53,735 bases of DNA from Pseudomonadota bacterium (GTDB lineage Bacteria; Pseudomonadota; Gammaproteobacteria; Ga0077536). Position 1 is the first letter of the stretch; the number at the start of each line of letters is the position of its first letter. A program made the position numbers and the translations under genes. Of the stretch, positions 9,908 to 28,364 are shown in pieces. The notes under the pieces were generated by a model. The model was not told the origin of the DNA. It did not search any database and saw only the letters and a program-made list of their open reading frames with translations. The DNA lies in assembly GCA_043734785.1 (NCBI GenBank), contig JAYTEX010000279.1, positions 1 to 53,735 of the forward strand, written 5' to 3'.

Positions 9908-10009
9908 CCCCGCACGCTATGTGATGCTATCGCGGCAAGTCAAGGCTGGCGCCCCCGCGTGTTCACGCCAACTGTTTACGCCCCCATGCCCGGCCTCTAC
10001 CATGCGCGC

Positions 10010-11089
10010 ATGACCACACCCCCAGAATCTCCGCTCAGTTACCGCGATGCCGGTGTCGATATCGATGCGGGCGCCGCGCTCGTCGACCTGATCAAACCGG
10101 CTGCCCAAGCGACCGTGCGCAAGGGCGTGATGGGTGGTCTGGGCGGCTTTGGCGGACTGTTCAAACTGGCCGCAACCGGCTACCGAGATCCCATTCTGGT
10201 GTCTTCGACCGATGGCGTGGGCACCAAATTAAAACTTGCGATCGACATGAACCAGCACGACACCATCGGCATCGACTTAGTGGCGATGTGCGTGAACGAT
10301 GTGCTCGTGCAGGGTGCGGAGCCGCTGTTCTTTCTAGATTATTTCGCCACCGGCGCCTTGGATGTGGCGACCGCCGCGACAGTGATTAATGGCATTGCGC
10401 AGGGTTGCCGCGAAGCGAACTGCGCACTCTTGGGCGGTGAAACTGCCGAGATGCCCGATATGTACGCGCCAGATCACTACGATCTCGCCGGTTTCGTGGT
10501 GGGCGCGGTGGAAAGCGAGCGCGTCATCGATGGCAGCCGCATCCAAGCGGGGGATCAGATCCTGGCGCTCGCCGCCAGCGGGGTGCACTCGAACGGCTAC
10601 TCACTGGTGCGCAAAATACTGGCCCGCAGTGGCGTCTCGCTATCGACGCCCCTCAAGGCACTGGTGCCGAATGCCGCCGACGAACGTAGCCTTGGCGTCG
10701 CCCTGCTCGCGCCCACCCGCATCTATGTGCGCTCCCTGCTCGCCGCGTTTACGAGATTCACCTTACACGGTCTTGCCCACATCACCGGCGGCGGCATTAC
10801 AGATAACCTCCCGAGAGTGCTTCCCACCGGTACCCACGCCGTGATCGATCTCGCTGCCTGGCCACTGCCGCCGGTGTTTCAATGGCTGCGCGCCACTGGT
10901 CCCGTGACCGAGGCAGAGATGCTAAGGACCTTCAATTGCGGCATCGGCATGTTGCTGGTGGTGGCGCCGCACGACGCGGCCCCGCTCACCGAATTTCTGC
11001 GCGCACAGGGGGAGACGGTGTTTCAGGTAGGGCGGATCGAAGCGGGTGAACAGGCTGAGCGCGTCGTCTACGAGCACGTTCTGGCCTGA
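10010..11089 (+). CDS. purM: Phosphoribosylformylglycinamidine cyclo-ligase (AIR synthetase)
   Basis: [21 protein letters not shown]...DGVGTKL...GGETAEMP motifs. The ATG at 10010 is preferred over the track start at 9959. Confidence 0.93.
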
Positions 11090-11106
11090 GTCAGGTGCAG
11101 CAGCAC
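10977..11106 (+). repeat. Direct repeat copy 1 (functional purM 3' end plus about 15 nt)
   Basis: It aligns without indels to 14273-14402, at roughly 85% identity by eye. Confidence 0.85.
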
Positions 11107-11208
11107 ATAACAGTCTCCCAACGCGACCACGACTGTTCTTGAGATGAGCGCTAGTCGCGCAATGCACTACAATCTCTACGCTCTCCCACATCAGATAACT
11201 TTTTTGTG

Positions 11209-11979
11209 ATGAATCGACCCCCACGCATCCTGCTCACCAACGACGACAGCCACGACTCCCCGCTGTTTCACTTTGCGATCGAAGCGCTGCGCAAGCTCGG
11301 TGATCTGCATGTCGCCGTACCCGCCACTGAGCAGAGCTGGAAAGGGAAATCCATGACCCGTTACGGCCCGCTGTACGCAGAGCGGATCGCGATTCACGAT
11401 TTTCCGGCATGGTCGGTGACAGGGACCCCGGCGGATTGTGTGAATCTCGCGCTTTACAACCTGCTTGATGAGCAGCCGGATATCGTGGTTTCCGGGATCA
11501 ACATCGGCAAGAACGTGGGGCTGGGTTTCGTCTATGCTTCAGGCACCATCGGGGCGTGTCTGGAAGCCAACATCGCGGGCCTGCCCGCGCTCGCGCTGTC
11601 GCAGGAACTGACGCGCGAGGATTTTATTTACTGGGACCAGCATCGCGCATTTCGCGCAGACACCAGCGCGGTGCTGTCGCAGTCAATAGAGAAACTGATT
11701 CCGCGCATCTGGGCGCAGTTCGTCGCACCGCATATCGCGGAGAAAACCACCTGGAACGTGAATTTCCCTGCTGCCCCCGCAACGATATCGGACATCCATC
11801 GCACGCGACTCGGTTACAGCACCTACCGTAATTGCTTCCGGCAGCGTGGCGACCAGTATCATTTTGCGCTTGCCGCCGCTGATCTCGACCCGGCCCCCGA
11901 TACTGACGACGCGACCCTCAAAGCCGGTCACGTCAGTGTGACTTTGCTCGATATACGAACCTTCGGCCAGGGCCTCTAG
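11209..11979 (+). CDS. SurE-family 5'/3'-nucleotidase paralogue (divergent)
   Basis: MNRPPRILLTNDDSHDSPLF...VVSGINIGKNVG...ASGTIGA. The SurE N-terminal NDD motif and the SGIN.G.N block are present. It is not in the canonical surE-pcm position. Confidence 0.8.
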   Translation: MNRPPRILLTNDDSHDSPLFHFAIEALRKLGDLHVAVPATEQSWKGKSMTRYGPLYAERIAIHDFPAWSVTGTPADCVNLALYNLLDEQPDIVVSGINIGKNVGLGFVYASGTIGACLEANIAGLPALALSQELTREDFIYWDQHRAFRADTSAVLSQSIEKLIPRIWAQFVAPHIAEKTTWNVNFPAAPATISDIHRTRLGYSTYRNCFRQRGDQYHFALAAADLDPAPDTDDATLKAGHVSVTLLDIRTFGQGL

Positions 11980-12068
11980 TGCGCACGGTTCTATAATTAA
12001 CCGACGATTCGCGCGCAGGTAACGTGCCGCGACCATTGTCCAGCCAGTATCACACCCGGCACCGCCCC

Positions 12069-12344
12069 CTAGCCACCAGACCAATACAGAAAAATAATCG
12101 TACCGCTTACCCCGATCGCCCAGGCCTCCAACATAAGCCGCAATGGCAGTGGCGCGGCGCGTAACTCCATGAAATCGAGGAACACGTAGCGGACCTTGAT
12201 GAACGCAATGACGATCACGGCGACCGTGGCATGGCGGTATCTATCACCGAAACCGAGGCCGTGGCCGAATTCCCACGACAACGCGGTCGCCGCGATCAGT
12301 AGAAACCAGATTAAGGTGATTCGATCGAAGAGCAGCGCACGCAT
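12069..12344 (-). CDS. Prokaryotic cytochrome oxidase subunit-IV-like small membrane protein (NorF/NirP-like)
   Basis: 91 aa with 3 predicted TM segments. It lies 4 nt downstream of the CoxIII-like gene. The KVRYVFLDFMEL segment resembles COX4_pro-type proteins. Confidence 0.6.
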   Translation of the reverse strand: MRALLFDRITLIWFLLIAATALSWEFGHGLGFGDRYRHATVAVIVIAFIKVRYVFLDFMELRAAPLPLRLMLEAWAIGVSGTIIFLYWSGG

Positions 12345-12348
12345 CCGC

Positions 12349-12936
12349 TTATCTCATCAGGTACAACAACGCAAAAAGGACGATCCACAAGATATCCACC
12401 ATGTGCCAGAAGCTCGCACCGCTCTCCAGCGTATTGATGGTTTTCTCGCCCAGGTCCTCGGCCCGCGTCACATTCCACATGAACGCCAGCACACCCATGC
12501 CGATCAGTACATGCATCAGGTGCAGACCGGTGAACATGTAGTAGTACATGTAGAAATCGTTGGTCGTCAGCATGATACCCGCGTCAATCTTCTCCTGATA
12601 CTCGAAGAATTTGACGCACACGAAAGCGAAGCCGCACAGAAAAGCGCTCGCGATAAAACGCCGGCCCAAGCCCACCATGCCGCCGCGCGCGGCGCGCAGT
12701 GCAAGGGCGACGAACCAGGAGCTCGTTAGCATCAGGAAGGTATTCAGCGCGCCGAGGTGCTGGTTCAGCGCGCGCTGCGACTCCACATAGAGCGTGACGT
12801 TCTCGGCACGGTAGTACACGAACACCACGAAGAAGGCCGCGAACATCAGCATGTCGCCCATAATGAACACCCACACGCCGGTTTCTCCGGGCAGATGGGT
12901 GCTCGCCCCTCGGGGGGTATCGATCACAACGCTCAC
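12349..12936 (-). CDS. Cytochrome c oxidase subunit-III-family protein, short 5-TM form (NorE/NirO-like)
   Basis: 195 aa with hydrophobic helices and FTGLHLMHVLIGM and FWHMVDILWIVLF blocks typical of the COX3 family. Confidence 0.75.
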   Translation of the reverse strand: MSVVIDTPRGASTHLPGETGVWVFIMGDMLMFAAFFVVFVYYRAENVTLYVESQRALNQHLGALNTFLMLTSSWFVALALRAARGGMVGLGRRFIASAFLCGFAFVCVKFFEYQEKIDAGIMLTTNDFYMYYYMFTGLHLMHVLIGMGVLAFMWNVTRAEDLGEKTINTLESGASFWHMVDILWIVLFALLYLMR

Positions 12937-12970
12937 ACGATGTTCAGCGCGATAAAGTCTGGAACATCCT

Positions 12971-13663
12971 TCATGCCGCGCGCGCCTGAGCGAGGATCGC
13001 CCGACGCAGGAAGAAGACCATCACGAGGTACCAAGCGAAAAAAATCAGGAGCGGGATCCAGAATGCGAACACGCCGTTCCAGGCGAAAGGCCCGGTCTTG
13101 AAGAAGGTGAGCAGGCCACCTGGTATAAACAGGACGCCGACCCAAATCGTAAAAAAGCCGAGCCAGCGCGGAAACACCGGCACCGGACTCTGGTCCCCGA
13201 GCACTGCTAAACCGATCGCGAAGTTCTGGATAATGAATGTCGTGAACGGCATCAGGAACACGACCCAGCCGAGATCGTTCAGCAGCAAGATCAGATCCGC
13301 ATCGCGTTCCGGACGAAACGCCGCCGTCGTCCAGATCAGACAGGGTAACAGCAGGAAAATCACGCCAGCCGTCCCGGCGGACAACTGGGTGTAGGTGAGG
13401 ATCGGCGGATTGCCTTCCATACGTTTCATCTGCACCGAAATCACGGCAAAAAAGGCGCTCATGAAGCCGCAGCTCGCCATCATGATGAAAAGACCGAGTC
13501 GGATCTCCGAGGTCCGGGTCTGATACATGGACGCGATGTCGAGCGCGGTTGCATTCGGCGATACCGGCGGCACGAAATGCGACACCAACCAGAAACCAGT
13601 CATGAACAACAGAGTGAACACTAAGCCACTCCAGGCACACAGAATTTGATTGCGCGTATTCAT
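12971..13663 (-). CDS. Polytopic membrane protein of unknown function
   Basis: 230 aa from the ATG at 13661-13663, preceded by AGGGAG. It has about 6 hydrophobic segments and is co-oriented with the CoxIII/IV-like pair. No family was recognised. Confidence 0.6.
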   Translation of the reverse strand: MNTRNQILCAWSGLVFTLLFMTGFWLVSHFVPPVSPNATALDIASMYQTRTSEIRLGLFIMMASCGFMSAFFAVISVQMKRMEGNPPILTYTQLSAGTAGVIFLLLPCLIWTTAAFRPERDADLILLLNDLGWVVFLMPFTTFIIQNFAIGLAVLGDQSPVPVFPRWLGFFTIWVGVLFIPGGLLTFFKTGPFAWNGVFAFWIPLLIFFAWYLVMVFFLRRAILAQARAA

Positions 13664-14272
13664 TGGATGCTCCCTTTCTGTTGATGCTTCTAATAGGCAA
13701 GATTTCTGGCGAGTCTTCTCCACCCGACACATCTAAGACACCCGTTCTGTACGGACGCTGGAGATAGACCCGACGCTTGCACATGACCGCAGAGTACTCA
13801 AGATGCGACTGAGTTTCCACGCTGCACTGCGGTTCATTCGATGAGCTCGACAAGCGAAGGATCAGATGCGATCGTCTTCGAGGCCGCTGGATTTTCGATG
13901 CTCACGATCACCTTCAGCGCACCACCACAGATCCCTGCCTACCCACGTGTTAATTTTCGGCGCCTCATCCAGCAAAAAAATGGCCGTGCCACCCACACAG
14001 AGCGGCATCGCACTCAAGCTGCTTGCTGTGGTTGAAAAGCACGGCTTGAAGGTGCTGGCATGAGCTTGCGCCACCGCTTCCTGCACATTCTGCTCGCAAC
14101 ATCGAGCGCGCCGCAGACTTTGCTGCAGGCATATAAGTGGGACGTCCTCGACGCGCAATGGCAACCGACCGCACCCGCTGTGGCGCCAAGCACGGGGCGG
14201 ACTGACCCGGCCGCCCTGGTCGCCGCTGCACAGCAAGGCGACCTCGCCAAAGTTAAACAGCGGCTAGGGTTG

Positions 14273-14402
14273 CTGCGCCGCTCACCGAATTTCTGGGCTC
14301 AAAGAGGGAGACGGGTTTTCGAGTGGGGCGGATCGAAGCGGGTGAACAGGCTGAGCGAGGAGTCTACGAGCACGTTCTGGCCTGAGTAGGGTGCAGCGGC
14401 AC
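14273..14402 (+). pseudogene. Displaced, degenerate copy of the purM 3' end (direct repeat copy 2)
   Basis: In the purM frame it reads [35 protein letters not shown]. purM itself reads [35 protein letters not shown]. No upstream purM body is attached. Confidence 0.8.
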
Positions 14403-14525
14403 GTTACGTAGGCGATGAGAGCCATAACGCCAATCGCCGCACGACGTGACTGCCGTCGTTGTGAGCGCCCCACCACACGCGATCGTTATTCCATGGCGGT
14501 AGTCGTGGTCGCCACCCGTCGGTGG

Positions 14526-15290
14526 CTAAGGGGGGCTGCGTCCCTCCTCAATCGCCGTGAGGAAGCCCCTGAGGATGCGCACCTCGCTGCGCCTCAAATC
14601 ACTCCGATTAAGCAAGCGTTGAAGCCGGATGGGCAAGCGCTTGGGGCGTGCCGGATTGAAGAACCCCACACTCGCCATCACACGCGTGAGGTGCTGAATC
14701 GCCTCTGCCACCTCGTGCGCGCTCGCCATGGGTTCGTGATCATGGGTCGCCATCGGCATTTCCGCCCGCGACGCCATCCGCAGTTCATAGGCGCATATCT
14801 GCACCGCGTGCGCGATATTCAATGAACTGAAGGTCTCCTCTGTTGGAATGCGGATCACACGTTGGCACAACGCCAATTCCTCATTCGATAGGCCCGACTG
14901 TTCGCGGCCGAAAACGATGGCGCATTGCGTGGAATCCGGCAGCACCGATAGCTCAAGCGCAAGTTGACGCGGGGTGCCCACCGGCCATTCGAGGTGACGT
15001 GAGCGCGCGGTCGTACCAATCACCATCCCGCAATCGGCGATCGCGTGCGCGAGATCCTCATGACAGATTGCGCGCATCAGAATATCGTCCGCACCGGAAG
15101 CTCTAGCCGTGGCGGCGACGGACGGGAATTCACGCGGATTCACCAGCGCAAGTCGGCTCAAGCCCATGGTCTTCATGGCCCGCGCGACCGCTCCGATATT
15201 GCCGGGGTGCGAAGTCTCGACCAGCACGATGCGAGTCCTGGACAGCAGCGTCGTGTCTACTGGCGGCCTCAAGGTCCCGTCGTTTTCCAT
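14526..15290 (-). CDS. trmJ: tRNA (cytidine/uridine-2'-O)-methyltransferase, SpoU/TrmH class
   Basis: From the ATG at 15288-15290: MENDG...RIVLVETSHPGNIGAVARAMKTMG...IVFGREQSGLSNEEL...IPT...SLNIAHAV. About 255 aa, as for TrmJ. Confidence 0.85.
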   Translation of the reverse strand: MENDGTLRPPVDTTLLSRTRIVLVETSHPGNIGAVARAMKTMGLSRLALVNPREFPSVAATARASGADDILMRAICHEDLAHAIADCGMVIGTTARSRHLEWPVGTPRQLALELSVLPDSTQCAIVFGREQSGLSNEELALCQRVIRIPTEETFSSLNIAHAVQICAYELRMASRAEMPMATHDHEPMASAHEVAEAIQHLTRVMASVGFFNPARPKRLPIRLQRLLNRSDLRRSEVRILRGFLTAIEEGRSPP

Positions 15291-15507
15291 CGCATCGAGT
15301 CCCCTATCCGTTAAGATCGCGCGCCATTGTAGAGGTGAAGTAACGCTGAGGTGTGGCGATGCACTCCATGTTGGATATCGCGGTGCGCGCCGCGTAACGA
15401 CGGACTTGAACAATCTCAGCGATGATCTGCCCAATGGTTTTGGCCCGCAGGGTAGACGCCTTGGCGCGACATCCAATAAGCACCTAAGCAAAACGCCGGC
15501 AGCGACC

Positions 15508-16077
15508 TCACGCGACGTCGGTGCCGGCATAGAGCTCGGCAAGACGCAAGGGCACGCCCGGTATGCCGGCGGCGATGAGCAAGGCATGATCATCGGTCAG
15601 CTCCGTTGTCGTCCACCGTCCGTCGTCGCCACGCGTGTGGGACTCGACGCGACGCTCGTCCTGGCTGACAATCCAGTAGCTGCGCAGGCTAGGTAATTTG
15701 CGATAGGCGGCGAGCTTTTCACGACGGTCCGTGCCCGCCGTAGAAGGACTCAACACCTCGACAACCAAGGTCGCATCTGAGGCCACATTACGCTCGCCGG
15801 CCAGGCCAACGCCACAGAGAACAAAAACGTCAGGGTAGTAAACGCTATCGACCGTTTGGACATGCAGCTTCATGTCATTAATAAACGCCTGGCAGGGCGT
15901 GCTTGCTGTACGTTGGAGCAAAGCGCTGTAAATGTTGCCGGAAATTCGGTTGTGCCGCATCGAGCCGCCCACCATCGCATGCACATAACCGCCGACGTAC
16001 TCATGCCGGATTTCGCTGGTGTCCTCGAACGCCAGGTAATCAATCAAGTCAACAGGGCTTTGCAGCGCGTGGGCCAT
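15508..16077 (-). CDS. Uma2 (DUF820) family PD-(D/E)xK-like endonuclease, copy 1
   Basis: MAHALQSPVDLIDYLAFEDTSEIRHEYVGGYVHAMVGGSMRHN...PDVFVLC...LVVEVLSPSTAGTDRREKLAAYRKL. This is the classic Uma2 layout. Confidence 0.8.
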   Translation of the reverse strand: MAHALQSPVDLIDYLAFEDTSEIRHEYVGGYVHAMVGGSMRHNRISGNIYSALLQRTASTPCQAFINDMKLHVQTVDSVYYPDVFVLCGVGLAGERNVASDATLVVEVLSPSTAGTDRREKLAAYRKLPSLRSYWIVSQDERRVESHTRGDDGRWTTTELTDDHALLIAAGIPGVPLRLAELYAGTDVA

Positions 16078-16355
16078 GATCCATCTTAGGTCACCGCGCC
16101 TGCCACGATCAACCTGGTCGCAGGCGTGCTTCCTTCTCGTGCACGTCGATGGGGATCCCAATCCACTTGATTCTGTGGAAAGGCGCGATTTGACCACAGA
16201 CGTCTCGATAGTCGATTAGCCCTCGCTATCGACTTTTCCTCGTCTGCTGGGTCACACAAACGATGTCTGCCGCCGCCGGCGAATGACAGGCCGTGCATTC
16301 CATAGGCTATCGCACGGCCGCTTCCGACCTCGGCATCAGAGGAATGCGCTCGCCA

Positions 16356-17504
16356 TCACCACGCAGCCTCGAGCAATGCGAGAACCTCTGATGACTTGGT
16401 AATTGGACGCGGATTGGTCGGAATCCACATGTCGTGCATGGACTCATCCGCGATCCGCGGCAACAGCTCGCGTGGCACATCCGCATCGCGCAGACGACCA
16501 GGCAAATCGAGGCTTGCCACGAGCGCTTGCACAATATCGGCAGCTTCCTCGCCGGGATTACCCATCGCGGTCGCGAGGCTCGCCTGGCGTTCGGCATTCA
16601 CTGCACGGTTGAAGCGCAGCACATGGGGGAGCATCACGCATGACGTTTCACCGTGCGGCATGCCGGCGGTGCCGCCAAGCATGTGACCAATCCCATGGCT
16701 CGCGCCAAGATCGACCCCGGTCGCGACGCCCTGAACCGACAGCCACGCGCCGATGAGCGCATCGAGACGCGGCCCAAGTGCGGCGGCGTCGGCCTGGCAG
16801 GCACGCAGCGCGGGTACCAAGAGACGGAGCGCATGCAGCGATGTGGCCTCGACCATGGGCGTTACATTGATTGAGCACCATGTCTCGACGGCGTGGTCGA
16901 CGGCACGGATACCCGTACCGGACCAAAGCCGAGGTGGCGTGGCAATGGTCATCGCCGCGTCGAGGATGACAATAGTCGGCGCCGCTTGCGCCTGCCAGAA
17001 TAATTCTTTGCGTTGAATCCGTTCATCTGTGACGCCGGCATAGCAGGTGAATTCGCCGGCCGACAGAGTGGTCGGAATCGCGATGAACGGTACGCTCGGT
17101 GAGTTGGTGCGCGGGTCGGGGGCGCGCAAGCGTGTGATGTCATCGCTGGTCGTCACATCATTCGCCAGACACAGCCGCGCGACCTTGATCGCATCGCAGA
17201 CCGAGCCGCCGCCAAAACCGATCACCGCATCGGCGCGATGTTCGCGCAGCGCTGACGCGATGCGGATAACGTCGTCACGCGGTGAATGCGCGGCCACGCC
17301 GGTCACTCGTGCCACCACCCGCGAGCCGAGCGCGGCAAACACGAGGTCGGCGAGGCCCCCGGGCCGCGCTAGGCTGCTGTTGGTAACGAGCACCACCCGT
17401 CGAGCGCCAAGTCTCTCCAGCTCGGCCTCGAGCGCTTGCGCCATCGGTGTGCCGTAAATGACGGTCTGTTGTGGGGGTGGCGTAAATCGCCCGGATTTTG
17501 TCAT
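16356..17504 (-). CDS. Iron-containing alcohol dehydrogenase family (maleylacetate-reductase-like)
   Basis: 382 aa from the ATG at 17502-17504. It carries VVLVTNSSL, GFGGGSVCDAIK and GASHGIGH..GG motifs of the Fe-ADH superfamily. Confidence 0.8.
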   Translation of the reverse strand: MTKSGRFTPPPQQTVIYGTPMAQALEAELERLGARRVVLVTNSSLARPGGLADLVFAALGSRVVARVTGVAAHSPRDDVIRIASALREHRADAVIGFGGGSVCDAIKVARLCLANDVTTSDDITRLRAPDPRTNSPSVPFIAIPTTLSAGEFTCYAGVTDERIQRKELFWQAQAAPTIVILDAAMTIATPPRLWSGTGIRAVDHAVETWCSINVTPMVEATSLHALRLLVPALRACQADAAALGPRLDALIGAWLSVQGVATGVDLGASHGIGHMLGGTAGMPHGETSCVMLPHVLRFNRAVNAERQASLATAMGNPGEEAADIVQALVASLDLPGRLRDADVPRELLPRIADESMHDMWIPTNPRPITKSSEVLALLEAAW

Positions 17505-17940
17505 GTCAGCGAACTCCTTCGGGGTTGCGATGCTTAGTTTCGATGATCGATTGTGACTGTAACGCGTGGGTGGGAAGCATGCTAGAACGGGATCGCAAGG
17601 GGATAATCCGAAGGAGGATAATCCAGGACACCCTCCTCTCCAGTCGCTTCGCCTGTTCTGGTCATCATGCCGTCGATAATTACCCCGCCGGAGAGTGCCG
17701 TCGCCTCCATCAGTGTGCGACGCCCACTTGCTGTGTTCACCCATTTCTATCTCCTGCCGAACATGCAACCTTCGCTGAACGCACAATAAATCTGTCGCCT
17801 TTCTGCTTCTGCTTTCGGTGGGTCGTCGTATACTCTGCTGAGATCGCGGCATATTGTCGACGATGGGCAACTGGCGGCGTGGTGGGTAACTTAATGGTTA
17901 TGGGACGGTGGACGTTCTTCAATTTTTCCTGAGGTGCGGC

Positions 17941-18453
17941 ATGCACGCTTTTACTTTTGAAAAACTGAATGTGCCAGCGTTGGTCGCGCGCTGGCGAGAA
18001 ATTATCCAGGACGAGAACGTCCCGGATTTTTGCGAACTCGATGAATTCGGAGAAATCGAAGTGAATCCTCCGCCGTCATTCAAACACCAGCAGTGGGTTG
18101 CCGCAATCGGACGACGGATGGAAACGCAGCTTGGCGGGGAGTCCGGGAGTTACGCCTTAGCGACCGCAATCGGTGTGCGTTTCTCCGATGTCTGCTGGGC
18201 GAAAAATTTTAGCGAGCTTGCGCGCGATGGCGGATCTGATCCGCTGACAAAAATGCCGCCGATCTGCGTTGAGGTTTTATCGCCCGGCAACCGGCGCAAG
18301 AAAATAGAATCCACCGTTGCCGCATACCTGACGGCTGGCGTCGAGGAGGTGGTGCTCGTTGAACTCGACGGACGCGTGCGGTGGTTCGATCGAAGCGGCG
18401 AACGCCCCAACAGCCAATTTGACCTAACACTCGATTTTGCAGACCTGAAGTAA
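17941..18453 (+). CDS. Uma2 (DUF820) family endonuclease, copy 2 (divergent)
   Basis: MHAFTFEKL...EIEVNPPPSFKHQQ...PPICVEVLSPGNRRKKIESTVAAYLTAGVEEVVLV. The EVLSPGN...K core is conserved. Confidence 0.75.
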   Translation: MHAFTFEKLNVPALVARWREIIQDENVPDFCELDEFGEIEVNPPPSFKHQQWVAAIGRRMETQLGGESGSYALATAIGVRFSDVCWAKNFSELARDGGSDPLTKMPPICVEVLSPGNRRKKIESTVAAYLTAGVEEVVLVELDGRVRWFDRSGERPNSQFDLTLDFADLK

Positions 18454-18633
18454 CCGCTGTCCCCTTTGCCATTTTCTGAACTTCGAACCATCTAGCCGGG
18501 GGTTAGAGCCTGTCTAGGCGCATCAATTTTCTACGTTAAACTGACGCGGTTGGTGGCTGGCGCGTAATATTTTGTCGGTTGAGCCGAGCGAAAGCTTGCA
18601 AAATCGCGCGCAGACACGAAACCCGCTCGGGTT

Positions 18634-18800
18634 GTTGGGGTGAGCTTGCGAAGCCCAACAGTGAGTAGACCCGCTCGCTGCGGATACTCGGATTCGCGAC
18701 GACGCGGTCACCCGGCGGATAATGGATGTTGGGGTTCGCGGCGCTCACCCCAACCTACGTTGAACACGCTGCCCGCATGCGCTTCGGCGGCGATAGAAGC
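18634..18800. repeat. REP-like mosaic repeat, modules B then A
   Basis: Module B (about 18634-18716) contains gagcttgcgaagcccaac...cggattcgcgacgacgcggtcac. Module A (about 18724-18800) contains the gttggggttcgcggcgctcaccccaac hairpin followed by ...gcccgcatgcgcttcggcggcg. Both recur at 21975-22143 in the order A then B. Confidence 0.75.
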
Positions 18801-18804
18801 GACT

Positions 18805-19122
18805 TTTTCAGGGACGACTATCTAGCGAGGCTTACGTCATCTGGAAGGCGACGCAACCGCTGCGACACGAGTTCGTCAATGGCGAGTTTTTTGCGATGGT
18901 CGGTGGAACCCGCCAACACGAGACGATAGCGCTTAACTTGGCGTCGTGGCTGAGAAACCGGTTAAGTGGATCGCCGTGTCGTGCTTACACCGACGGTATG
19001 AAGGTCTGTGTCGAAGCCGTCAATGCGTATTGCTACCAGGACGTATTCGTCACCTGCTCCGAGAGAGATCACCAAGCCAGCGATGATCTGACTAAGCCGC
19101 AGCTTATTATCGGTAAGCGATC
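18805..19122 (+). pseudogene. Uma2 family endonuclease, copy 3: frameshifted and truncated by IS66
   Basis: RDDYLARL is in one frame. WKATQPLRHEFVNGEFFAMVGGTRQHETIALNL...QDVFVTC...KPQLII follows in another. The reading frame stops exactly where the EVLSP motif should follow, at the IS66 left inverted repeat. Confidence 0.65.
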
Positions 19123-20111
19123 CATAAACACCATTCTTCCAAGCCCTTAGGGGTTGTGACACGTTGTTCTCCTTTGCGAGGAGCACGTGATGTCGAATCA
19201 TTCATCGTTGACTGAACGCCAGCAATTTTGGTTGGAGCACTCGCAAAGTCGCGGCTGCGTCAACGCGGGATATGGCCAGCGACGGGGCCGCATTTCGTGC
19301 GTGTGGAGGCTGTGGTCAGTACCGCAGCGGCGGTGCCGGGCCTTTATCGGGTGTCGTTGCCGACAAGGGTTACCTGCAAACCGATGGCTATGCCGGTTAT
19401 CACGCGGTGGTTGCCGCCAATGGCCTCACCCCGCTCTATTGCTTCGCGCATGCCCGACGCTATTTTACCGACGCCCTCAAGGCGCTCGGCTTGAACCCGA
19501 ACAAGCTACCACTGATACCGCCCGACAAAGCCCGCCGGCCGCTGAAGGCGCTCAACTTCATCCGCCATCTGTACGTCATCGAGCAGCGTATCCGAACGTC
19601 AACGCCGCAAGAGCACCTTGCCGCACGTCAGGCCGAGAGTGCGCCCGTCTTGAAAGCGCTTCGCGCCTGGCTCGATCAACTTCTACCGAAAGTCGTGCCC
19701 AGCAGTCCGCTCGGCAAAGCCCTCGGTTACCTTGACCGTCACTGGCAGGGCCTCGGGGTGTACTGCGCGGATGGCCGGATCGAAATCGACAACAAACGCT
19801 GCGAGAACGCCATCCGCCCCTTCGTCACCGGGCACAAAAACTGGTTGTTCAGTGACACCGTCCAAGGTGCGCAGGCCAGCGCCAACCTTTATTCTCTGAT
19901 TGAAACGACTAAGGCCAACGGGCTCGAACCCTATGCCTATCTGCGCCGCGTGTTCACCTTACTGCCGTAGGCCACCACCGTCGCTGACATCGAGGCCCTG
20001 CTGCCCTGGGCAAAACCCGCCAGCGCCTGATTCCTCTGTTGATCAACGTATCGCCCTGGCCAGCAACCGTATTCGGGAATTACACGGTTACGCGGTTCGT
20101 GGACCGCTTAC
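19123..20111 (+). mobile_element. Internally deleted IS66-family element (about 0.99 kb)
   Basis: The terminal inverted repeats are gtaagcgatccataaacac (left) and the reverse complement gtaagcggtccacgaaccg (right). Inside lie a decayed TnpA-like start (MSNHSSLTERQQFWLEH) and only the C-terminal part of the TnpC transposase. Confidence 0.8.
19272..19970 (+). pseudogene. IS66 transposase (TnpC) C-terminal fragment with premature stop
   Basis: GYLQTDGYAGY...IDNKRCENAIRPFVTGHKNWLFSDT...LIETTKANGLEPYAYLRRVFTLLP*. The in-frame continuation ATTVADIEALLPWAKP after the TAG shows a nonsense mutation. The N-terminal two-thirds is missing. Confidence 0.8.
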
Positions 20112-20148
20112 GATTAATTTTTAATCCCTCCGTCCTGTTTTATCAAAG

Positions 20149-21528
20149 TCAGTGACCGTCCCAGTTCCTCTCAAAGGTCATTGCTCGCACAGACAACAGC
20201 AATGCGAACCACGCCGGCACCCACGCAAGGATGTTTGACAACTCAACCCATTCCAGCGGGATTCCTAAATGCAGCTGAAAAATTCTCCGTCCGAAGCCCA
20301 GACAAAGCAGGAGTGAAAGCGAGGCGAGGATTACGACTGAACGTGACGAGCTTTGTTCAAAGAGAAGGTAAACAACTGGGAATAACAGCAGCACCAAGTA
20401 ATGCTGCCAAACAAGCGGGGATAGCGCCAGCGTAACGATAAGTCCGAAGCTGACCGCAAGGTATAAACGATGACCGCCGTTCGCGTCGGCCGACAATGTC
20501 GGGAACCAGACGCTACGAGGGAGTAATAGTCCAATCGTGCACAAGAGACCACCCCCGATTGCGGCAGCGGCAAGAAGTATTGTCACGTTCAGTTCTTTTG
20601 CCAAGTAACTCGTGGTCGAAAAATTTCCAGCACTCATCGGGTACGAAATTCGTAGAGCATTTGATGTCAATTCACGATACCAATCCAACCACACACCCCA
20701 AGTTCCGAAATACAGGCATGGCAATAGAGCCAACAGTACGGTCGAGAGTGCAACGCCGACCGCCCACGTCACCCGCCCGACGGGAGTCATCTTTCCAAAC
20801 AACACCCAGATCAATAGCAGCGCGCTAAGCGTTAGCGTTGGTTTGAACAACAGGATCACAGCAAGCATCAGGACGATACCGACTTGCGAAAAACGATGTA
20901 GATGGCGCAATTTGATGAGCAGAACGGTGACGCAAGTCATTGCTAATAATTGCAGTGCATTCGTATTGCCAACATTTACGTCTAGCAAAAGTGGGTCGTA
21001 AGCGAGGCATAGCAGAGCTGCGAATATCAGTGGGAAAAACCAGTGGCCGGAGCGGGTCATGCCGATTATCGAGACGGCGATCCAAGCACTAGCAATCTGA
21101 ACAAGTCGATATCTTGTTAAGAAGGTTAAATAATCCGCCGGTGCGAGAGCATGCATGTAGTAGAGGAGAGGTGTCGCGGTTAAATCGAAGGGTAGTGACA
21201 CGTTCGCAATGCGCGCAAGAACCGTTTGCTCGGTTACTGCGAGCAATTGTTTGAGCGCGGCTGCATATTCATCGGGGGCTAGATAGGGGCTTCCTAACTG
21301 ACCGGGGTAAGCCTTATGCACCGCACCAATGGCCCAGAACCTGAACAAGTCAATTCCAGGTGAAGAAAGCGCGTGTGGCCATAAGGAGATAGAGGAAATC
21401 GCACAGACAGCGATGACCAAAAGCAGACCGAACGGCGCGAGGCATCGCATATTTAAGCCATACCCATCTTCCGGTTGAACTCTACGACGCCAGGAAATTC
21501 TAGTGTCAGCCCAAAGCCACTTTAACAA
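20149..21528 (-). CDS. Polytopic membrane protein, GT-C-fold/DUF2029 (GT87)-like glycosyltransferase candidate
   Basis: 459-aa ORF (alternative ATG at 21450) with more than 10 hydrophobic segments. GC content is visibly lower than in the flanks. The family assignment is tentative (YDPLLLDVNVGNTNALQLL loop). Confidence 0.55.
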   Translation of the reverse strand: MLKWLWADTRISWRRRVQPEDGYGLNMRCLAPFGLLLVIAVCAISSISLWPHALSSPGIDLFRFWAIGAVHKAYPGQLGSPYLAPDEYAAALKQLLAVTEQTVLARIANVSLPFDLTATPLLYYMHALAPADYLTFLTRYRLVQIASAWIAVSIIGMTRSGHWFFPLIFAALLCLAYDPLLLDVNVGNTNALQLLAMTCVTVLLIKLRHLHRFSQVGIVLMLAVILLFKPTLTLSALLLIWVLFGKMTPVGRVTWAVGVALSTVLLALLPCLYFGTWGVWLDWYRELTSNALRISYPMSAGNFSTTSYLAKELNVTILLAAAAIGGGLLCTIGLLLPRSVWFPTLSADANGGHRLYLAVSFGLIVTLALSPLVWQHYLVLLLFPVVYLLFEQSSSRSVVILASLSLLLCLGFGRRIFQLHLGIPLEWVELSNILAWVPAWFALLLSVRAMTFERNWDGH

Positions 21529-21730
21529 AGGTATAAGACACGCGCCTAGAGCAAAAGCGCCGCGGCTTCCGCCGCATGACGAGAATCAAGTGCGCTTTAC
21601 AACACTCGCTGGCAATCCGTGTTTCCCCGGATTGAAATACGCGACGACATATGAGTCAGGCGATAGCTGCCGCTTGCGGCGGAAGGCGCTGCGCTTTTCC
21701 GCCCTATAGGGCTATTTGGCCTTGAGACGG

Positions 21731-21814
21731 TGCCGGGCGGGGGACTCGAACCCTCACATGGTTGCCGATACCCGTTTTTGAGTCTGGCGCGTCTACCCAT
21801 TCCGCCATCCCGGG
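21731..21814 (-). tRNA. tRNA-Leu(CAA)-like class-II tRNA, possibly a pseudogene
   Basis: Reverse complement: CCCGGGATGGCGGAATGGGTAGACGCGCCAGACTCAAAAACGGGTATCGGCAACCATGTGAGGGTTCGAGTCCCCCGCCCGGCA. It has a Leu-type D-arm, a CUCAAAA anticodon loop and a GGTTCGAGTCC T-arm. Hand folding gives 5 stem mismatches and CCA is not encoded. Confidence 0.55.
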
Positions 21815-21974
21815 ACGGGACGCCACATAGAGAAAGCCGCCCGCCTTTATGCGCAGAAAGACTCTGGCGGTCGCGCGGAATTGCTCATTGAGCGGCTAAT
21901 CTCGTCAACCCGGGCGCTGGCGCCTATTCGGGCCAGTAAATCGCCCAAGCCCGGGGCGCGGTTGCACCGTGGCA

Positions 21975-22143
21975 GGATGTTGGGGTTCGCGGCACTCACC
22001 CCAACCTACCTTGAACACGCATGCCCGCATGCGCTTTGGCGGCGCTAGAAGATTGGGTAGGTTGGGATGAGCTTGCGAAGCCCAACCGTGAGTAGACCCG
22101 CTCGCGCGGCTACTCGGATTCGCGACGATGCGGTCACTCGGCG
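21975..22143. repeat. REP-like mosaic repeat, modules A then B
   Basis: Same two modules as 18634-18800, in the same orientation but permuted order, at about 90% identity by eye. Confidence 0.75.
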
Positions 22144-22373
22144 TGTTCATGGGGACATGCCTCGCGCACGTGATTGCACCCCCTGCCGAGCGCTGGGACG
22201 ACATGCTGCTGGTCGAATATCCCACCCGCGGTGCTTTCGTCGATGCGCTATCGTCGCCCGAATATCGTGCCGTGGTTTTTCACCGCACCGCCGGCTTGCA
22301 GGATTCGCGGCTGATCGCGTTTTGCGGCGGCGCCTTAAGCATTCCGTTGCCTGGCACAGGTAAGTGTGCATGA
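22128..22373 (+). pseudogene. DUF1330-like protein, C-terminal part only
   Basis: ERWDDMLLVEYPTRGAFVDALSSPEYRAVVFHRTAGLQDSRLIAF matches the C-terminal half of DUF1330 proteins. The expected N-terminal ~35 aa are replaced by REP module B sequence. Confidence 0.55.
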
Positions 22374-22469
22374 CCGTCTAACCGGCCGGGCCAGCGAACC
22401 AGGCACCCAGTCTGCTCGCACCAGCGCGTCGAAATCATGGGGAGTGGTCAAGGCCGTCCTCTCGGCATC

Positions 22470-23159
22470 CTAGCCCCCGCGCAAGCGCTGCCAGTCTTCA
22501 ACGGTCTGGATTCGAAGGTAGGCGTTGGAACGGCGCTGCTCGGCCATGGTACTGGTTTGCGTCGGACCATAATCATGTCCGGGATAGAGCACGACATCGT
22601 CGCCTAATTTAGCCAAGGTGCCAGTGAGCGTGCGGTACATGGCTTCCGGATCTGAGCCTGGCAGGTCCACCCGGCCGCAGCCGTTTACAAACAGGGTATC
22701 GCCCGCGACTAACCGGCTATGCACTAGAAAGCACTGGCTGCCGGGGGTATGGCCCGGCGTATGCAGCAGTTCGATTTTGACGTCGCCTATCTCAAGTAGG
22801 TCGCCGCCGACGTGACGCACCAGGTCGTTCTCACTGACCCCGGTGACTTTAATCAGCCCGTCGGCTTCGTGCTTATTAACATGGATTTTGGCATCGACCT
22901 TGCCGATCAGCTCGGCGACTCCACCGGGCACTTTGAAACCCAGCATGGCGCCGCCGACGTGATCCGGATGATAGTGGGTGACGAGCGCACCGGTGATGGT
23001 CATGTCATCGCGCGCGGCCGCCTCAAGTAACGCCGTCGTGTCCCATGCGGGATCCACCACCAGACACTGGCGCGTGCGGCGGCTGCCGACCAGGTAGATG
23101 AAGTTCTGCATCGGACCGAGCGGAATCTGGCGGAAATAAAGATCGTCATTGGCGTTCAT
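22470..23159 (-). CDS. MBL-fold metallo-hydrolase
   Basis: 229 aa with THYHPDHVGG (HxHxDH) and downstream His/Asp ligands (HTPGHTPGS, HDYG). Confidence 0.8.
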   Translation of the reverse strand: MNANDDLYFRQIPLGPMQNFIYLVGSRRTRQCLVVDPAWDTTALLEAAARDDMTITGALVTHYHPDHVGGAMLGFKVPGGVAELIGKVDAKIHVNKHEADGLIKVTGVSENDLVRHVGGDLLEIGDVKIELLHTPGHTPGSQCFLVHSRLVAGDTLFVNGCGRVDLPGSDPEAMYRTLTGTLAKLGDDVVLYPGHDYGPTQTSTMAEQRRSNAYLRIQTVEDWQRLRGG

Positions 23160-23361
23160 GGCACCTCCTAAAGATTGAAGACACGCACCATCCTAGAGGC
23201 TACACAAAATTCGGGACACCCTCGTTCGCGGGCTTGTGCGTCAACGCATTCACCCGTTGATGGTTGGCGAGCAATCCCTAGTGCCGAATGCGGTGGAAGC
23301 CGCGTGGAGGCACCTGGAGGAGAGAGCTCCGGATGAACTCATCCGTCGTGAGCGTCATCTC

Positions 23362-24408
23362 TCAAGTTGCCAGTCGGGGTTTCGCGGCGTGCTTGAAGTT
23401 TTCCGCCATGAACCATTCGAGGTAGGCTTGCGAGGTGATCGGGGGATGTTTCACCGGGTTGCCTGGCCCCGTGCAGGTTGGCAGGCAGGCGATCTCGAAT
23501 TCTGGATTCGGATGCACGAACAGCGGAATGGAATAACGATCACGGCCGGAGCGATTGCGGACGCGATGCGGTGTCGACAGAAAGCGTCCGTTCGTCCAGC
23601 GCGTGAGCATGTCGCCGGAATTGAACAAGATGGAACCCGGAATGGGCGGCGCGAGAAACCATTCACCCGAGCGCCCCAGCAACTCGAGTCCTGGCACGTG
23701 CGTGGTGGCTAGCAATGTCACGAATGAACTGTCGGTGTGGGGCCCTACGTTGAACTGATCGGGATCGAGCGGATCCGGTGGAAAGTGTGCGACGCGTAGC
23801 ACAGACAGCGCCTCGTGGCGCCCAAAAGCAGGATCGAAATAATCGGTTGGCAACTCGAGCGCAGAGGCGAATATCGGCAGCATCTGGTGGAAAAAATTTT
23901 CGGTCGCGTTGAAATATTCATTGAGCGTTTCGCGGAAGCCAGGAAGATCCTGCGGCCACTGGTTCTGCACCGACAACGGCGCGGCCTCGATCTCCCGTTT
24001 GACGAAAAAGGCTTCACCGACATCGGGTTTCAACGTCCCCGTGTAATAAGAGGAGGTGCGTGGCAGTTCGCCTTCATTGTCCATGAACCCAACGTGCGCA
24101 TCATTGATCGCCAATTTCATCTTCTCGGCTGCGGGCAAAGCATGGAAGCGTGCCGTCGCGGCGAAGGTGCGATCGATCAGCGTCTGGGGCACCGAATGAT
24201 TCACAGTGAAGAAAAAGCCAATCTCTTCCAGGGCTCGTCGCAGTTCGGTGGCCAGTGACATCAATGCGCCCGGCGCGCCCTGCAGATAAGCACCGACATC
24301 AAGCACGGGAATGGTTTCTTTGAGGGCGGTCGAGACCGCCTCCGGTTGTGCGTTCAAGTGCTGCCTCCCCAATTCCGCGGATGAGCGGTGGACGTCCCAA
24401 ACTAGCAT
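23362..24408 (-). CDS. 2-oxoglutarate/Fe(II)-dependent oxygenase (isopenicillin-N-synthase family)
   Basis: 348 aa. It has the N-terminal IPVLDV...GFFFTVNHSV block and the HTDSSFVTLL...HRV facial triad region. Confidence 0.8.
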   Translation of the reverse strand: MLVWDVHRSSAELGRQHLNAQPEAVSTALKETIPVLDVGAYLQGAPGALMSLATELRRALEEIGFFFTVNHSVPQTLIDRTFAATARFHALPAAEKMKLAINDAHVGFMDNEGELPRTSSYYTGTLKPDVGEAFFVKREIEAAPLSVQNQWPQDLPGFRETLNEYFNATENFFHQMLPIFASALELPTDYFDPAFGRHEALSVLRVAHFPPDPLDPDQFNVGPHTDSSFVTLLATTHVPGLELLGRSGEWFLAPPIPGSILFNSGDMLTRWTNGRFLSTPHRVRNRSGRDRYSIPLFVHPNPEFEIACLPTCTGPGNPVKHPPITSQAYLEWFMAENFKHAAKPRLAT

Positions 24409-26391: not shown

Positions 26392-26537
26392 CGTGGGTCG
26401 CAAGTTGAGGTCGGGGCGATGATACCAGTCCTCAAGGTTCCATCATCAAGCCGGTTCAACTCCACCATAAAGCCAGTAGAATGAGCCATCGACCCGCCGC
26501 CGGCGGGCCGCAAGCACCAGTGATAGGAGCGAACATC

Positions 26538-28364
26538 ATGGGTTGGCAGCGAAACATTCTGCGTGTGAATCTAACGACTGGCATTTGTAAGCACGAACCG
26601 CTGAATATGACGTGGGCGCAGCAGTACCTCGGTTCGCGCGGACTGGCGACGAAGTACCTGTTGGAAGAGATCGATCCCCAAGTCGATCCGCTGTCGCCTG
26701 ACAACAAGCTGATCATCGCAACGGGACCGCTGACCGGGACGATAGCCTCGACCGGTGGACGTTGGACGGCCGTGACGAAAGGTGCGCTGACGGGCGCCAT
26801 CGCGAGTTCGAACTCTGGCGGCCAGTTCGGCGGCGAGCTCAAGATGGCGGGCTACGACATGATCATCTTGGAAGGTCGTGCGCCGAAGCCCGTGTATTTG
26901 TACATTCAGGACGATGATGCCCAGTTGTTGTCCGCAGATGGTCTGTGGGGTAAATCGGTGTGGGAGGTCGAGCCTGCGATCAAACACACGCATCAAGACC
27001 CGCTGATTCGAATTGCGTCGATCGGACAGGCCGGTGAATACGGCAACCGCTACGCCTGTATCGTCAACGATCTACATCGCGCGGCCGGGCGTTCCGGTGT
27101 CGGCACGGTGATGGGTTCGAAGCAGCTGAAAGCCATCGCAGTCCGCGGCACCAAGGGCGTTAAACCCCATAATCCGACAAAATTCATGGCCGCCGTGAAG
27201 GTGGCGACCGCGGCACTGGCCAAGAACAAGGGCCGCAAAGGCATGACCTCGGACGGGACCATCGCCATGATGGACGTGACCGGCGCCTTCGGCGCGCTGC
27301 CCACTCGCAACAACCAGCAAGTGCAGTTCGAAGGTGCGGGCAAGATGAACGCCACGAGCATGAAGGCGCCGAATGAGAATGGTCATGTCAACCTGATTCA
27401 GAACGGTGCCTGTTTCTCCTGCACGATCGGTTGTGGGCGCATTTCGCACATCGATCCCCTCCATTTCTCGGTCAAGGATAAGCCGCAATACCAAAAGGCG
27501 TCGGGTGGCCTCGAGTACGAAACGGCTTATGCCTTGGGCTCTGCAGTCGGTGTCGACGATATGGACGCGGCGACCTACGCGGGATTTCTCTGCAATGAAT
27601 ACGGCATGGATCCGATTTCTTTTGGCGGTACGCTGGCCGCCGCGATGGAACTCTACCAGGTCGGAGCGATTACCAAGGAGCATACCGGTGGGGTGGATCT
27701 CGTGTGGGGAAATGCCGAAGCGCTGTGCCTGATGGCAGAGCTGGCGGGTAAGGGTGAGGGGTTCGGGCGCGATCTGGGACTCGGCTCCAAACGATTGACC
27801 GAAAAATATGGCCGCCCGGAATTATCGATGGCAGTCAAAGGCCAGGAATTCGCGGCCTATGATGGCCGCGCGATGCAGGGTATGGGCTTGGGCTATGCGA
27901 CCAGCAATCGAGGCGCGTGCCACTTGCGCGCCAATCCCTATGCCAGTGATTTCACCACTACAGAACTCAAGGAAAAACCTGAAGTGGTGCGCACCTCGCA
28001 GGATTTGGTGGCGGTGATCGACGCGACCGGTCTGTGTCTGTTTACGCTGCATTCTGGCGCGATTCCAGAGCACTATGCCGCGCAAATCGACGGCGCCTGT
28101 GAAGGCGGCTGGGACGTTGCGCGTCTGGTGGAAACCGGCGAGCGGATCTGGAACCTCGAGCGCCAGTTCAATCTGGCGGCAGGCTTAACCATTAAGGACG
28201 ACACGTTGCCTAGGCGGATCCTCGAGGAGCCTGCGCCGAGCGGCGTGGCCAAAGGTCAGGTTAGCGGTCTTAAGACCATGCTGCCGGAGTACTACCAGCA
28301 GCGCGGTTGGTCTGCAGAGGGCCGACCGACCGCGGAAACCCTGGCGCGGTTGGGCATGGGCTGA
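26538..28364 (+). CDS. aor: Aldehyde:ferredoxin oxidoreductase (tungsto-/molybdopterin AOR family)
   Basis: MGWQRNILRVNLTTG...YLGSRGLATKYL...IIATGPLTG, the [4Fe-4S] motif CFSCTIGC, and EYETAYALG. About 608 aa. Confidence 0.9.
   Translation: MGWQRNILRVNLTTGICKHEPLNMTWAQQYLGSRGLATKYLLEEIDPQVDPLSPDNKLIIATGPLTGTIASTGGRWTAVTKGALTGAIASSNSGGQFGGELKMAGYDMIILEGRAPKPVYLYIQDDDAQLLSADGLWGKSVWEVEPAIKHTHQDPLIRIASIGQAGEYGNRYACIVNDLHRAAGRSGVGTVMGSKQLKAIAVRGTKGVKPHNPTKFMAAVKVATAALAKNKGRKGMTSDGTIAMMDVTGAFGALPTRNNQQVQFEGAGKMNATSMKAPNENGHVNLIQNGACFSCTIGCGRISHIDPLHFSVKDKPQYQKASGGLEYETAYALGSAVGVDDMDAATYAGFLCNEYGMDPISFGGTLAAAMELYQVGAITKEHTGGVDLVWGNAEALCLMAELAGKGEGFGRDLGLGSKRLTEKYGRPELSMAVKGQEFAAYDGRAMQGMGLGYATSNRGACHLRANPYASDFTTTELKEKPEVVRTSQDLVAVIDATGLCLFTLHSGAIPEHYAAQIDGACEGGWDVARLVETGERIWNLERQFNLAAGLTIKDDTLPRRILEEPAPSGVAKGQVSGLKTMLPEYYQQRGWSAEGRPTAETLARLGMG

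Follow-up and report, generated by a model that had tools for sequence, protein, structure and literature searches.

The purM–trmJ locus

We analyzed a stretch of 53,735 nucleotides, hereafter the window, which is contig JAYTEX010000279.1 (C279) of GenBank assembly GCA_043734785.1 from an uncultured gammaproteobacterium (GTDB lineage Ga0077536). At this locus the 3' end of purM, the gene for AIR synthase, is present twice in direct orientation, and the two copies bracket a 3.16-kb insert that stands between purM and its ancestral convergent neighbor, trmJ. The features that define the locus are listed below.

10010–11089, plus strand: purM (AIR synthase), intact, with Pfam AIRS and AIRS_C domains; the open reading frame (ORF) opens at 9959 and the likely start is ATG 10010
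10976–11111, plus strand: repeat copy 1, the predicted functional purM tail (repeat search, alignment, comparison with relatives)
11112–14271, no strand: the insert, 3.16 kb, GC 0.575 versus 0.62 in the flanks
14272–14407, plus strand: repeat copy 2, a displaced and predicted non-functional purM pseudo-tail joined to the trmJ side (repeat search, alignment, relatives)
14408–14525, no strand: spacer from the pseudo-tail to the trmJ stop, with no robust homology to sister-species spacers and no exceptional RNA fold
14526–15290, minus strand: trmJ (SpoU-family tRNA methyltransferase, 254 aa; PF00588), the ancestral convergent neighbor of purM

Repeat search and alignment define a direct, ungapped repeat of 136 nt (10976–11111 versus 14272–14407) with 86% identity, comprising the last 37 codons of purM, the TGA stop at 11087–11089 and about 22 nt past the stop. 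A preliminary description of this DNA had drawn the repeat as 130 bp (10977–11106 and 14273–14402) at about 85% identity, in the same orientation and without indels; the repeat is real and slightly longer, covering 37 rather than 35 codons and about 22 rather than 15 nt of downstream sequence. The longest identical runs between the copies measure 32 and 26 nt. When copy 1 was searched with BLAST against the whole 3.8-Mb assembly, a single further copy was recovered (E = 4e-40), the next best match (E = 0.15) being noise. With only two copies in the genome the purM tail is not a dispersed repeat, and a dispersed family unrelated to purM, which the preliminary description had named as a possible undoing of its reading, is ruled out. 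The second match is limited to purM residues 336–376; the DNA 5' of copy 2 is unrelated, and a stop codon in the purM frame lies immediately 5' of it.

The empty site in related genomes

The comparison covered the purM neighborhood of 15 genomes belonging to the same genus and family. All 15 share the order perM, DUF2066, purM (opposite strand) and convergent trmJ, and in 10 of them the purM stop is separated from trmJ by a gap of 17–70 bp, that is, an empty site of the kind that the preliminary description had proposed to look for. Each of the 15 has a single purM tail and no second one, also where the cargo is lacking, and the 3.16-kb insert is absent from the purM/trmJ spacer throughout. 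Since relatives combine a single tail with direct adjacency of purM and trmJ, the 3.16 kb between the copies is a lineage-specific insertion in an otherwise empty site. The absence of purN, which had been remarked upon earlier, is irrelevant to the event, purM being followed by convergent trmJ in every relative. The window purM is 86–87% identical at the amino acid level to those of the sister species G005 and G002.

Three different inserts have independently entered the same spacer in four other relatives. G002 (L030 2981–3972) and G005 (L029 1393–2300) share a DUF433 plus DUF5615/PIN-like pair that is probably a toxin-antitoxin system; in G004 (L033 2669–6921) the insert measures 4.25 kb and includes a P450, an amidohydrolase-like ORF and an AraC regulator; and G010 (L038 2536–4133) carries 1.6 kb with a gene for a 509-aa polytopic membrane protein. 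Tail duplication is absent from all spacer inserts of these four genomes. Within this one uncultured genus of gammaproteobacteria, insertions have thus recurred in the convergent purM/trmJ spacer.

Past copy 2, the spacer matches sister species over 13 nt only (p about 0.03), which is no robust homology, and a search of the surroundings of both copies for RNA families, terminators and unusual folds gave nothing beyond chance. The 254-aa version of trmJ is backed by gene callers and alignments. A longer ORF on the same strand (14526–15593, minus, 355 aa) has about 100 additional N-terminal codons that lack a counterpart in relatives and overlap the end of a Uma2 gene.

Divergence and decay of the two tails

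The coding parts of the two copies are 87.7% identical to each other versus 71–77% to the tails of G005 and G002, and the 22 non-coding bases of both copies resemble the post-stop sequence of the sister species at 13–16 of 22 positions. Because the copies are each other's closest relatives and share this post-stop resemblance, both tails appear to descend from the chromosome of their own lineage, in what looks like a true duplication of the lineage's own DNA rather than a foreign mimic of the kind carried in the attachment site of an element (attP). This comparison speaks against the earlier suggestion that an element had supplied purM with a replacement end, since both tails, including the 22 non-coding bases, would come from the host lineage and not from an independently evolved attP. 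Copy 1 is not an outlier within its gene either: its nucleotide identity to G005 and G002 (0.77 and 0.75) is near that of whole purM (0.80), and the repeat block is also the most variable purM block between G005 and G002 themselves.

The 19 differences between the copies were polarized with G005, G002 and G003. About seven fall on copy 2 and two on copy 1, in an interleaved pattern; clustering of the differences as a crossover footprint was considered and is not significant (p = 0.13–0.3). About seven codons differ by amino acid-changing substitutions and three by silent ones, the pattern that neutral decay gives. The derived changes of copy 2 are mostly non-synonymous and affect conserved residues, as in the replacement of GETVF, which is present in 11 of 14 readable tails of relatives including all the closest species, by RETGF. 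Judged by these substitutions, copy 2 is a dead tail in decay and copy 1 the working purM end.

The copy–copy distance is 0.137 (Jukes–Cantor (JC), with the majority allele of copy 2), whereas four-fold sites of purM have diverged by 0.74–0.84 between this species and G005/G002; on this comparison the event is old, though still lineage-specific. If copy 2 drifts neutrally, its age may be put at about a quarter of the way back to the split from G005/G002.

Assembly support and strain variation

The same gene order is found on a 264-kb European Nucleotide Archive (ENA) contig (ERZ27314274) and on a 67-kb scaffold (ERZ28573534), at 99.96–99.97% identity. Logan unitigs of several sequencing runs recover the junction of copy 1 with the cargo as well as the trmJ side of copy 2; one of them equals window positions 11035–14355 exactly and terminates where k = 31 predicts, inside the identical block of 32 nt. 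In more divergent strains (98.4–99.7%) the junction between the first cargo gene and the operon beside it is retained. Independent contigs and unitigs agree, so an assembly chimera is rejected, and the purM–trmJ structure is not an assembly artefact. The insertion is fixed in all assemblies seen.

At copy 2 positions 14358 and 14360 the window has A and G, and all four other assemblies have C and T. Gene conversion toward copy 1 was considered for these sites and dropped: the other four assemblies hold that state, so a derived double change in the pseudo-tail, specific to the strain, is the simpler account of the window allele and agrees with a lack of constraint there. Of the five differences that separate the window from an independent contig of 99.97% identity, four lie in two tight pairs, 14358/14360 in the pseudo-tail and 18698/18701 in a REP-like (repetitive extragenic palindromic) repeat at 18.6–18.8 kb.

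Cargo genes of the insert

The insert holds two gene modules, a nucleotidase paralogue next to purM and a three-gene membrane operon on the opposite strand.

11209–11979, plus strand: SurE paralogue SurE2 (5'/3'-nucleotidase family), 256 aa; PF01975, E = 7.5e-46; TIGR00087
12069–12344, minus strand: CoxIV-like (COX4_pro) small membrane protein, third operon gene; PF03626
12349–12927, minus strand: CoxIII-like membrane protein, second operon gene; PF00510; 192 aa by gene callers
12971–13663, minus strand: polytopic membrane protein, 230 aa, first operon gene; no Pfam or NCBIfam hit

The profile matches (PF01975, COX4_pro and COX3, with the membrane protein left unassigned) agree with the gene content read from the sequence at the outset, namely a SurE paralogue, a CoxIII/CoxIV-like pair and a membrane protein. 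SurE2 is only 30–32% identical to the housekeeping surE homologues of the same genome. Its orthologues reach 82–83% identity in three genomes of the same genus and 48–80% across the family, always at other loci. In one relative, G009 (L087 6746–9232), a gene for an iron-containing alcohol dehydrogenase (Fe-ADH) is followed directly by a co-oriented SurE paralogue, and a distant paralogue of the membrane/CoxIII-like genes lies about 4 kb from the latter. The window has an orthologue of this Fe-ADH gene at 16356–17504; the Fe-ADH and SurE orthologues are 81% and 83% identical in amino acid sequence to those of G009. SurE2 and the Fe-ADH gene of the window are convergent and 4.4 kb apart, with the operon, the pseudo-tail, trmJ and the Uma2 gene between them.

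For the first operon gene the most likely start is ATG 13663, giving 230 aa, rather than 13732. Orthologues of its product (45–70% identity) are followed by CoxIII/IV-like genes at 12 of 12 loci of relatives, and the CoxIII-like protein scores below the equivalog cut-offs for CyoC, CtaE and QoxC. Many family members have the three-gene operon at other loci, with 45–75% identity. Across the order it is present in about 30 of 81 genomes, at differing positions and never accompanied by a catalytic oxidase subunit. Nucleotide homology to relatives ends at the gene boundaries of both modules, on the operon side at about 13674, and the insert is therefore a composite. In the 87%-complete assembly, SurE2 and the operon each occur only once.

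A comparison of GC content and codon usage with the flanks had been proposed as a check. The cargo genes lie at the 52nd–99th percentile of the genome in GC at third codon positions (GC3) and at the 20th–98th percentile in codon score; they are typical of the genome, and nothing foreign in composition or origin emerged. The lower bulk GC of the insert most likely reflects membrane-protein composition.

Debris and traces of mobility

Between the operon and copy 2 lies a gene-free stretch that contains the only trace of mobility in the insert.

13664–14271, no strand: non-coding debris, 0.6 kb; no family hit in the frames tested and no Rfam family above chance
13886–13930, minus strand: 3'-end relic (45 nt) of an IS91/ISCR-family transposase gene, transcribed toward the cargo operon
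14060–14389, plus strand: orf109, which reads copy 2 in another frame; no homologues; codon-adaptation score at the 3rd percentile of the genome

The debris has no homology to the flanks of orthologous operons. The preliminary description had seen an ankyrin-like fragment here; the corresponding truncated gene (14060–14271) shows poor codon usage and is without a homologue in Pfam/NCBIfam and among 81 genomes, which leaves the label without support, and orf109 is probably not a gene. Six-frame searches with PF00589 and PF00239 gave no match on the 53.7-kb contig, in line with the integrase-free content reported before, and the integrase or recombinase remnant that was to be sought at 13.7–14.3 kb did not appear, either in the six-frame profile searches or as a family hit in the debris. 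On its other contigs the genome encodes at least 10 tyrosine recombinases. Collections of genome and metagenome contigs contain no exact match to the repeat core, and locus scans based on purM revealed no closer relatives and no element.

The transposase relic matches contig C76 over 36 nt at 94% (E = 1e-8) and contigs C283 and C354 over 45–47 nt at 84–85%. Its C354 sibling in turn matches the C-terminus of annotated IS91-family (ISCR2-type) transposases on more than 5000 plasmids; the peptide encoded by the relic in the window is CGGALKVIVSIENP, compared with CGGAMKVIACIEDP. About 190 nt downstream of the relic, at about 13690–13705 (minus strand), an oriIS-like motif, ATCTTGCCTATTAG, resembles TTCTTCCTATACG of an ISCR2-type plasmid copy, a weak and short match that needs one indel.

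The 3.8-Mb genome contains about 10 IS91 relics and no intact copy. A second relic in the window (23257–23397, minus strand) matches positions 134–180 of the Y2_Tnp domain and is interrupted by internal stops (...DEFIRSSLLQVPPRGFHRIRH*GLLAN...); the genes on either side of its spacer appear intact. Some eight further small relics are found on contigs C364, C18, C380, C354, C175, C283, C57 and C76. The relics at 13.9 and 23.3 kb were considered as halves of one gene and rejected as such, since intact genes lie between them and the second sits in a spacer of its own. An alternate-frame match of copy 2 to an IS91 transposase (WAQRGRRVF) was likewise discarded: it is not significant at the nucleotide level, and 83 of 300 shuffles score as well. 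On contig C175 (1859–2243 and 11783–12109), inverted repeats of about 200 and 156 nt, 90–91% identical, surround about 10 kb with another IS91-family relic.

Rearrangement beyond trmJ

Beyond trmJ, relatives carry a gene for a 145-aa protein and another for a 392-aa protein. Here both are on contig C213, which is cut inside the 145-aa gene, and orthologues of the window gene at 26481–28364 lie on contigs other than that of purM in all eight relatives tested. This break in synteny, just upstream of trmJ (window 15300–24000), marks a larger rearrangement with a junction next to trmJ. Together, trmJ and the attached pseudo-tail thus preserve the ancestral order as an island, with a rearranged zone full of mobile-element debris on either side.

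Origin of the insertion

The locus has the topology of one reciprocal crossover within the final 136 bp of the purM region, which several routes could have produced. We favor, with a probability of roughly 40%, the insertion of same-lineage DNA by a homology-driven, Campbell-type event, in which an IS91-type circle may have been the vehicle. Starting from an ancestor with convergent purM and trmJ genes separated by a few tens of bases, a 3.16-kb composite of the SurE paralogue, the operon and 0.6 kb of debris would have been placed 22 nt past the purM stop, with the last 136 bp of the purM region left on both sides of it. A single Campbell-type crossover in which the purM tail of the chromosome recombined with a second tail copy on incoming, probably circular, same-lineage DNA could produce this arrangement, and it would proceed by homology (RecA-type recombination, or homology-anchored illegitimate joining) rather than by a purM-specific integrase. 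An IS91/ISCR-type rolling-circle element, whose putative 45-nt relic faces the cargo, may have made the circular intermediate. Afterwards copy 1 would have remained under selection as the working purM end, with copy 2 free to drift as a pseudo-tail. The circle, the use of homology and any role of an IS91-type element are steps that we infer from the arrangement.

In favor of homology-driven insertion we count the two-copy repeat, the empty site, tails that are each other's closest relatives, the decay of one of them, the lack of a recombinase on the contig, the native cargo and the IS91 relic. Several points weigh on the other side. The link to IS91 consists of 45 nt and a weak oriIS-like motif, and other IS91 relic loci of the genome have no comparable bracketing duplications of gene tails. 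The route also presupposes a circle on which a purM tail already lay beside the cargo. The insert is present in every assembly or contig that spans the site, and neither an empty-site allele nor a circle or donor arrangement is among them. Finally, a repeat that spans exactly a gene end and its stop is also what the att site of an integrase looks like.

This last point leads to a serious rival with a lost integrase, possible although somewhat unlikely, in which a tyrosine-integrase element with a purM 3' end in its attP entered purM, gave copy 1 and left copy 2 behind as a decayed site-specific islet. Its integrase module might have occupied the 0.6-kb debris and been deleted later, the gene-free stretch adjoining copy 2 being a possible place for it, or the islet might have been moved in trans as a cis-mobilizable element (CIME)-like unit, for which the tyrosine recombinases on other contigs could have served. 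The topology is that of e14 in icd, where a 163-bp pseudo-icd' was left (PMC6379469), the repeat covers the gene end and stop, and purM stays intact. The preliminary description had read the locus in this way, as an integrative islet between attL- and attR-like copies; of that reading the insertion in an empty site, the single tail elsewhere and the decaying second copy stand, and the integrase does not, with no recombinase or remnant on the contig. Further points count against the islet. Its cargo is compositionally native and composite, relatives keep its genes elsewhere, both tails including the non-coding part seem to come from the lineage's own sequence, and no purM tail duplication is seen in the 15 relatives despite three other inserts in the same spacer. 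A repeat core without an exact match in genome or metagenome collections also argues against it.

An unlikely third route would have generated the structure in situ during repair or replication, through a staggered double-strand break, or a template switch at a stalled fork, that drew copies of other parts of the genome into the spacer and resumed 136 nt back, giving a long target duplication without an incoming circle and without a recombinase. Such a route would suit a patchwork insert in which three or more native segments, unrelated to one another, lose their homology to relatives at gene boundaries, tails that look like the decay of a single sequence, and the heavily rearranged zone around trmJ; long-target-duplication insertions, moreover, form a class without a known enzyme (PMC2853133). 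The patchwork could equally have been assembled before arrival, however, and because the 87%-complete assembly has no second SurE2 or operon copy, the source copies must have been lost under this route.

A remnant of a second full-length purM paralogue and a two-strain assembly chimera, to which the similarity of the tails alone lends support, are effectively refuted, since the match at copy 2 is confined to residues 336–376 beside unrelated upstream DNA, the rest of a duplicated purM would still be recognizable at 14% divergence, and the structure recurs in different samples, on three long contigs and in several k-mer-exact unitigs.

Relation to known systems

Insertion with long target duplication is a documented class in which inserts shorter than 20 kb are flanked by duplications of more than 30 bp and up to about 420 bp and carry no mobility genes (PMC2853133). 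As relayed by Furuta, Abe and Kobayashi 2010 (PMC2853133), it is traced to Nobusato et al. 2000. The class was defined for restriction-modification genes, its members are mostly strain polymorphisms with near-identical repeats, and in two published examples the repeats overlap the 3' end of a gene (PMC2853133). The purM insert resembles the class in size (3.16 kb), in the length of its duplication (136 bp), in that both repeats align to the single tail of empty-site genomes, in a repeat that is unique to the site with its two copies, and in the lack of linked mobility genes beyond the 45-nt IS91 relic. In contrast to the published cases, its cargo is a nucleotidase paralogue and a membrane operon without restriction-modification genes, and the event is an old one (86% identity), fixed in all assemblies seen. 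The class fits in every structural respect except restriction-modification cargo.

In e14, the working 3' end of icd is kept and a 163-bp pseudo-tail, icd', is found at the far end of the insert (PMC6379469). As with e14 and phage 21 in icd, direct repeats of a gene end bracket the purM insert, and the displaced pseudo-tail is of similar length. Unlike e14, phage 21 and CIMEs, the insert has no integrase, excisionase, or gene of a phage or an integrative and conjugative element (ICE); its cargo is native and both tails appear to be of the host lineage. A CIME would further be expected to have a cognate element, and none using the purM-tail site was found in 15 relatives, nor any exact match of the core among genome and metagenome contigs.

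Elements of the IS91/ISCR type insert without a short target duplication and mobilize neighboring DNA by a rolling-circle mechanism (PMC3575428). In ISCR1-linked class 1 integrons, a partial duplication of resident sequence surrounds ISCR and cargo and is joined by homologous recombination (PMC3575428). The order at purM is comparable, with resident sequence, a candidate IS91-family transposase relic directed toward the cargo, the cargo, and a second resident copy, which in the integrons is the duplicated 3' conserved segment (3'-CS). It differs in that 45 nt of the transposase gene are left, there is no clear oriIS, and the resident sequence is the tail of a chromosomal housekeeping gene.

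Another parallel is offered by the orphan modules of Rhs and contact-dependent growth inhibition (CDI) systems, and by homology-facilitated illegitimate recombination, in which incoming DNA brings its own gene end and the old end persists downstream as a dead copy. Rhs/CDI arrays usually have divergent incoming tails and serial stacking, whereas the purM locus records a single event and its working tail is not divergent.

Significance

The purM insert is a genuine recombinase-less insertion scar of a familiar kind and reveals no new mechanism. It would be a long shot to see in it a general, recombinase-free route, of the long-target-duplication kind, for metabolic operons into housekeeping gene tails, fed here by an IS91/ISCR circle with homologous rescue; the locus would then be a chromosomal, non-resistance analogue of complex class 1 integrons, and the purM/trmJ spacer a reusable landing pad in the genus. 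For annotation, the second tail and orf109 are not to be called as genes. The insert adds an example that is neither restriction-modification nor phage to the small literature on long target duplications. It is also a clean case of accessory genes spliced in beside an essential gene that is left undamaged: the end of the gene is duplicated, and by all appearances one copy works and the other decays.

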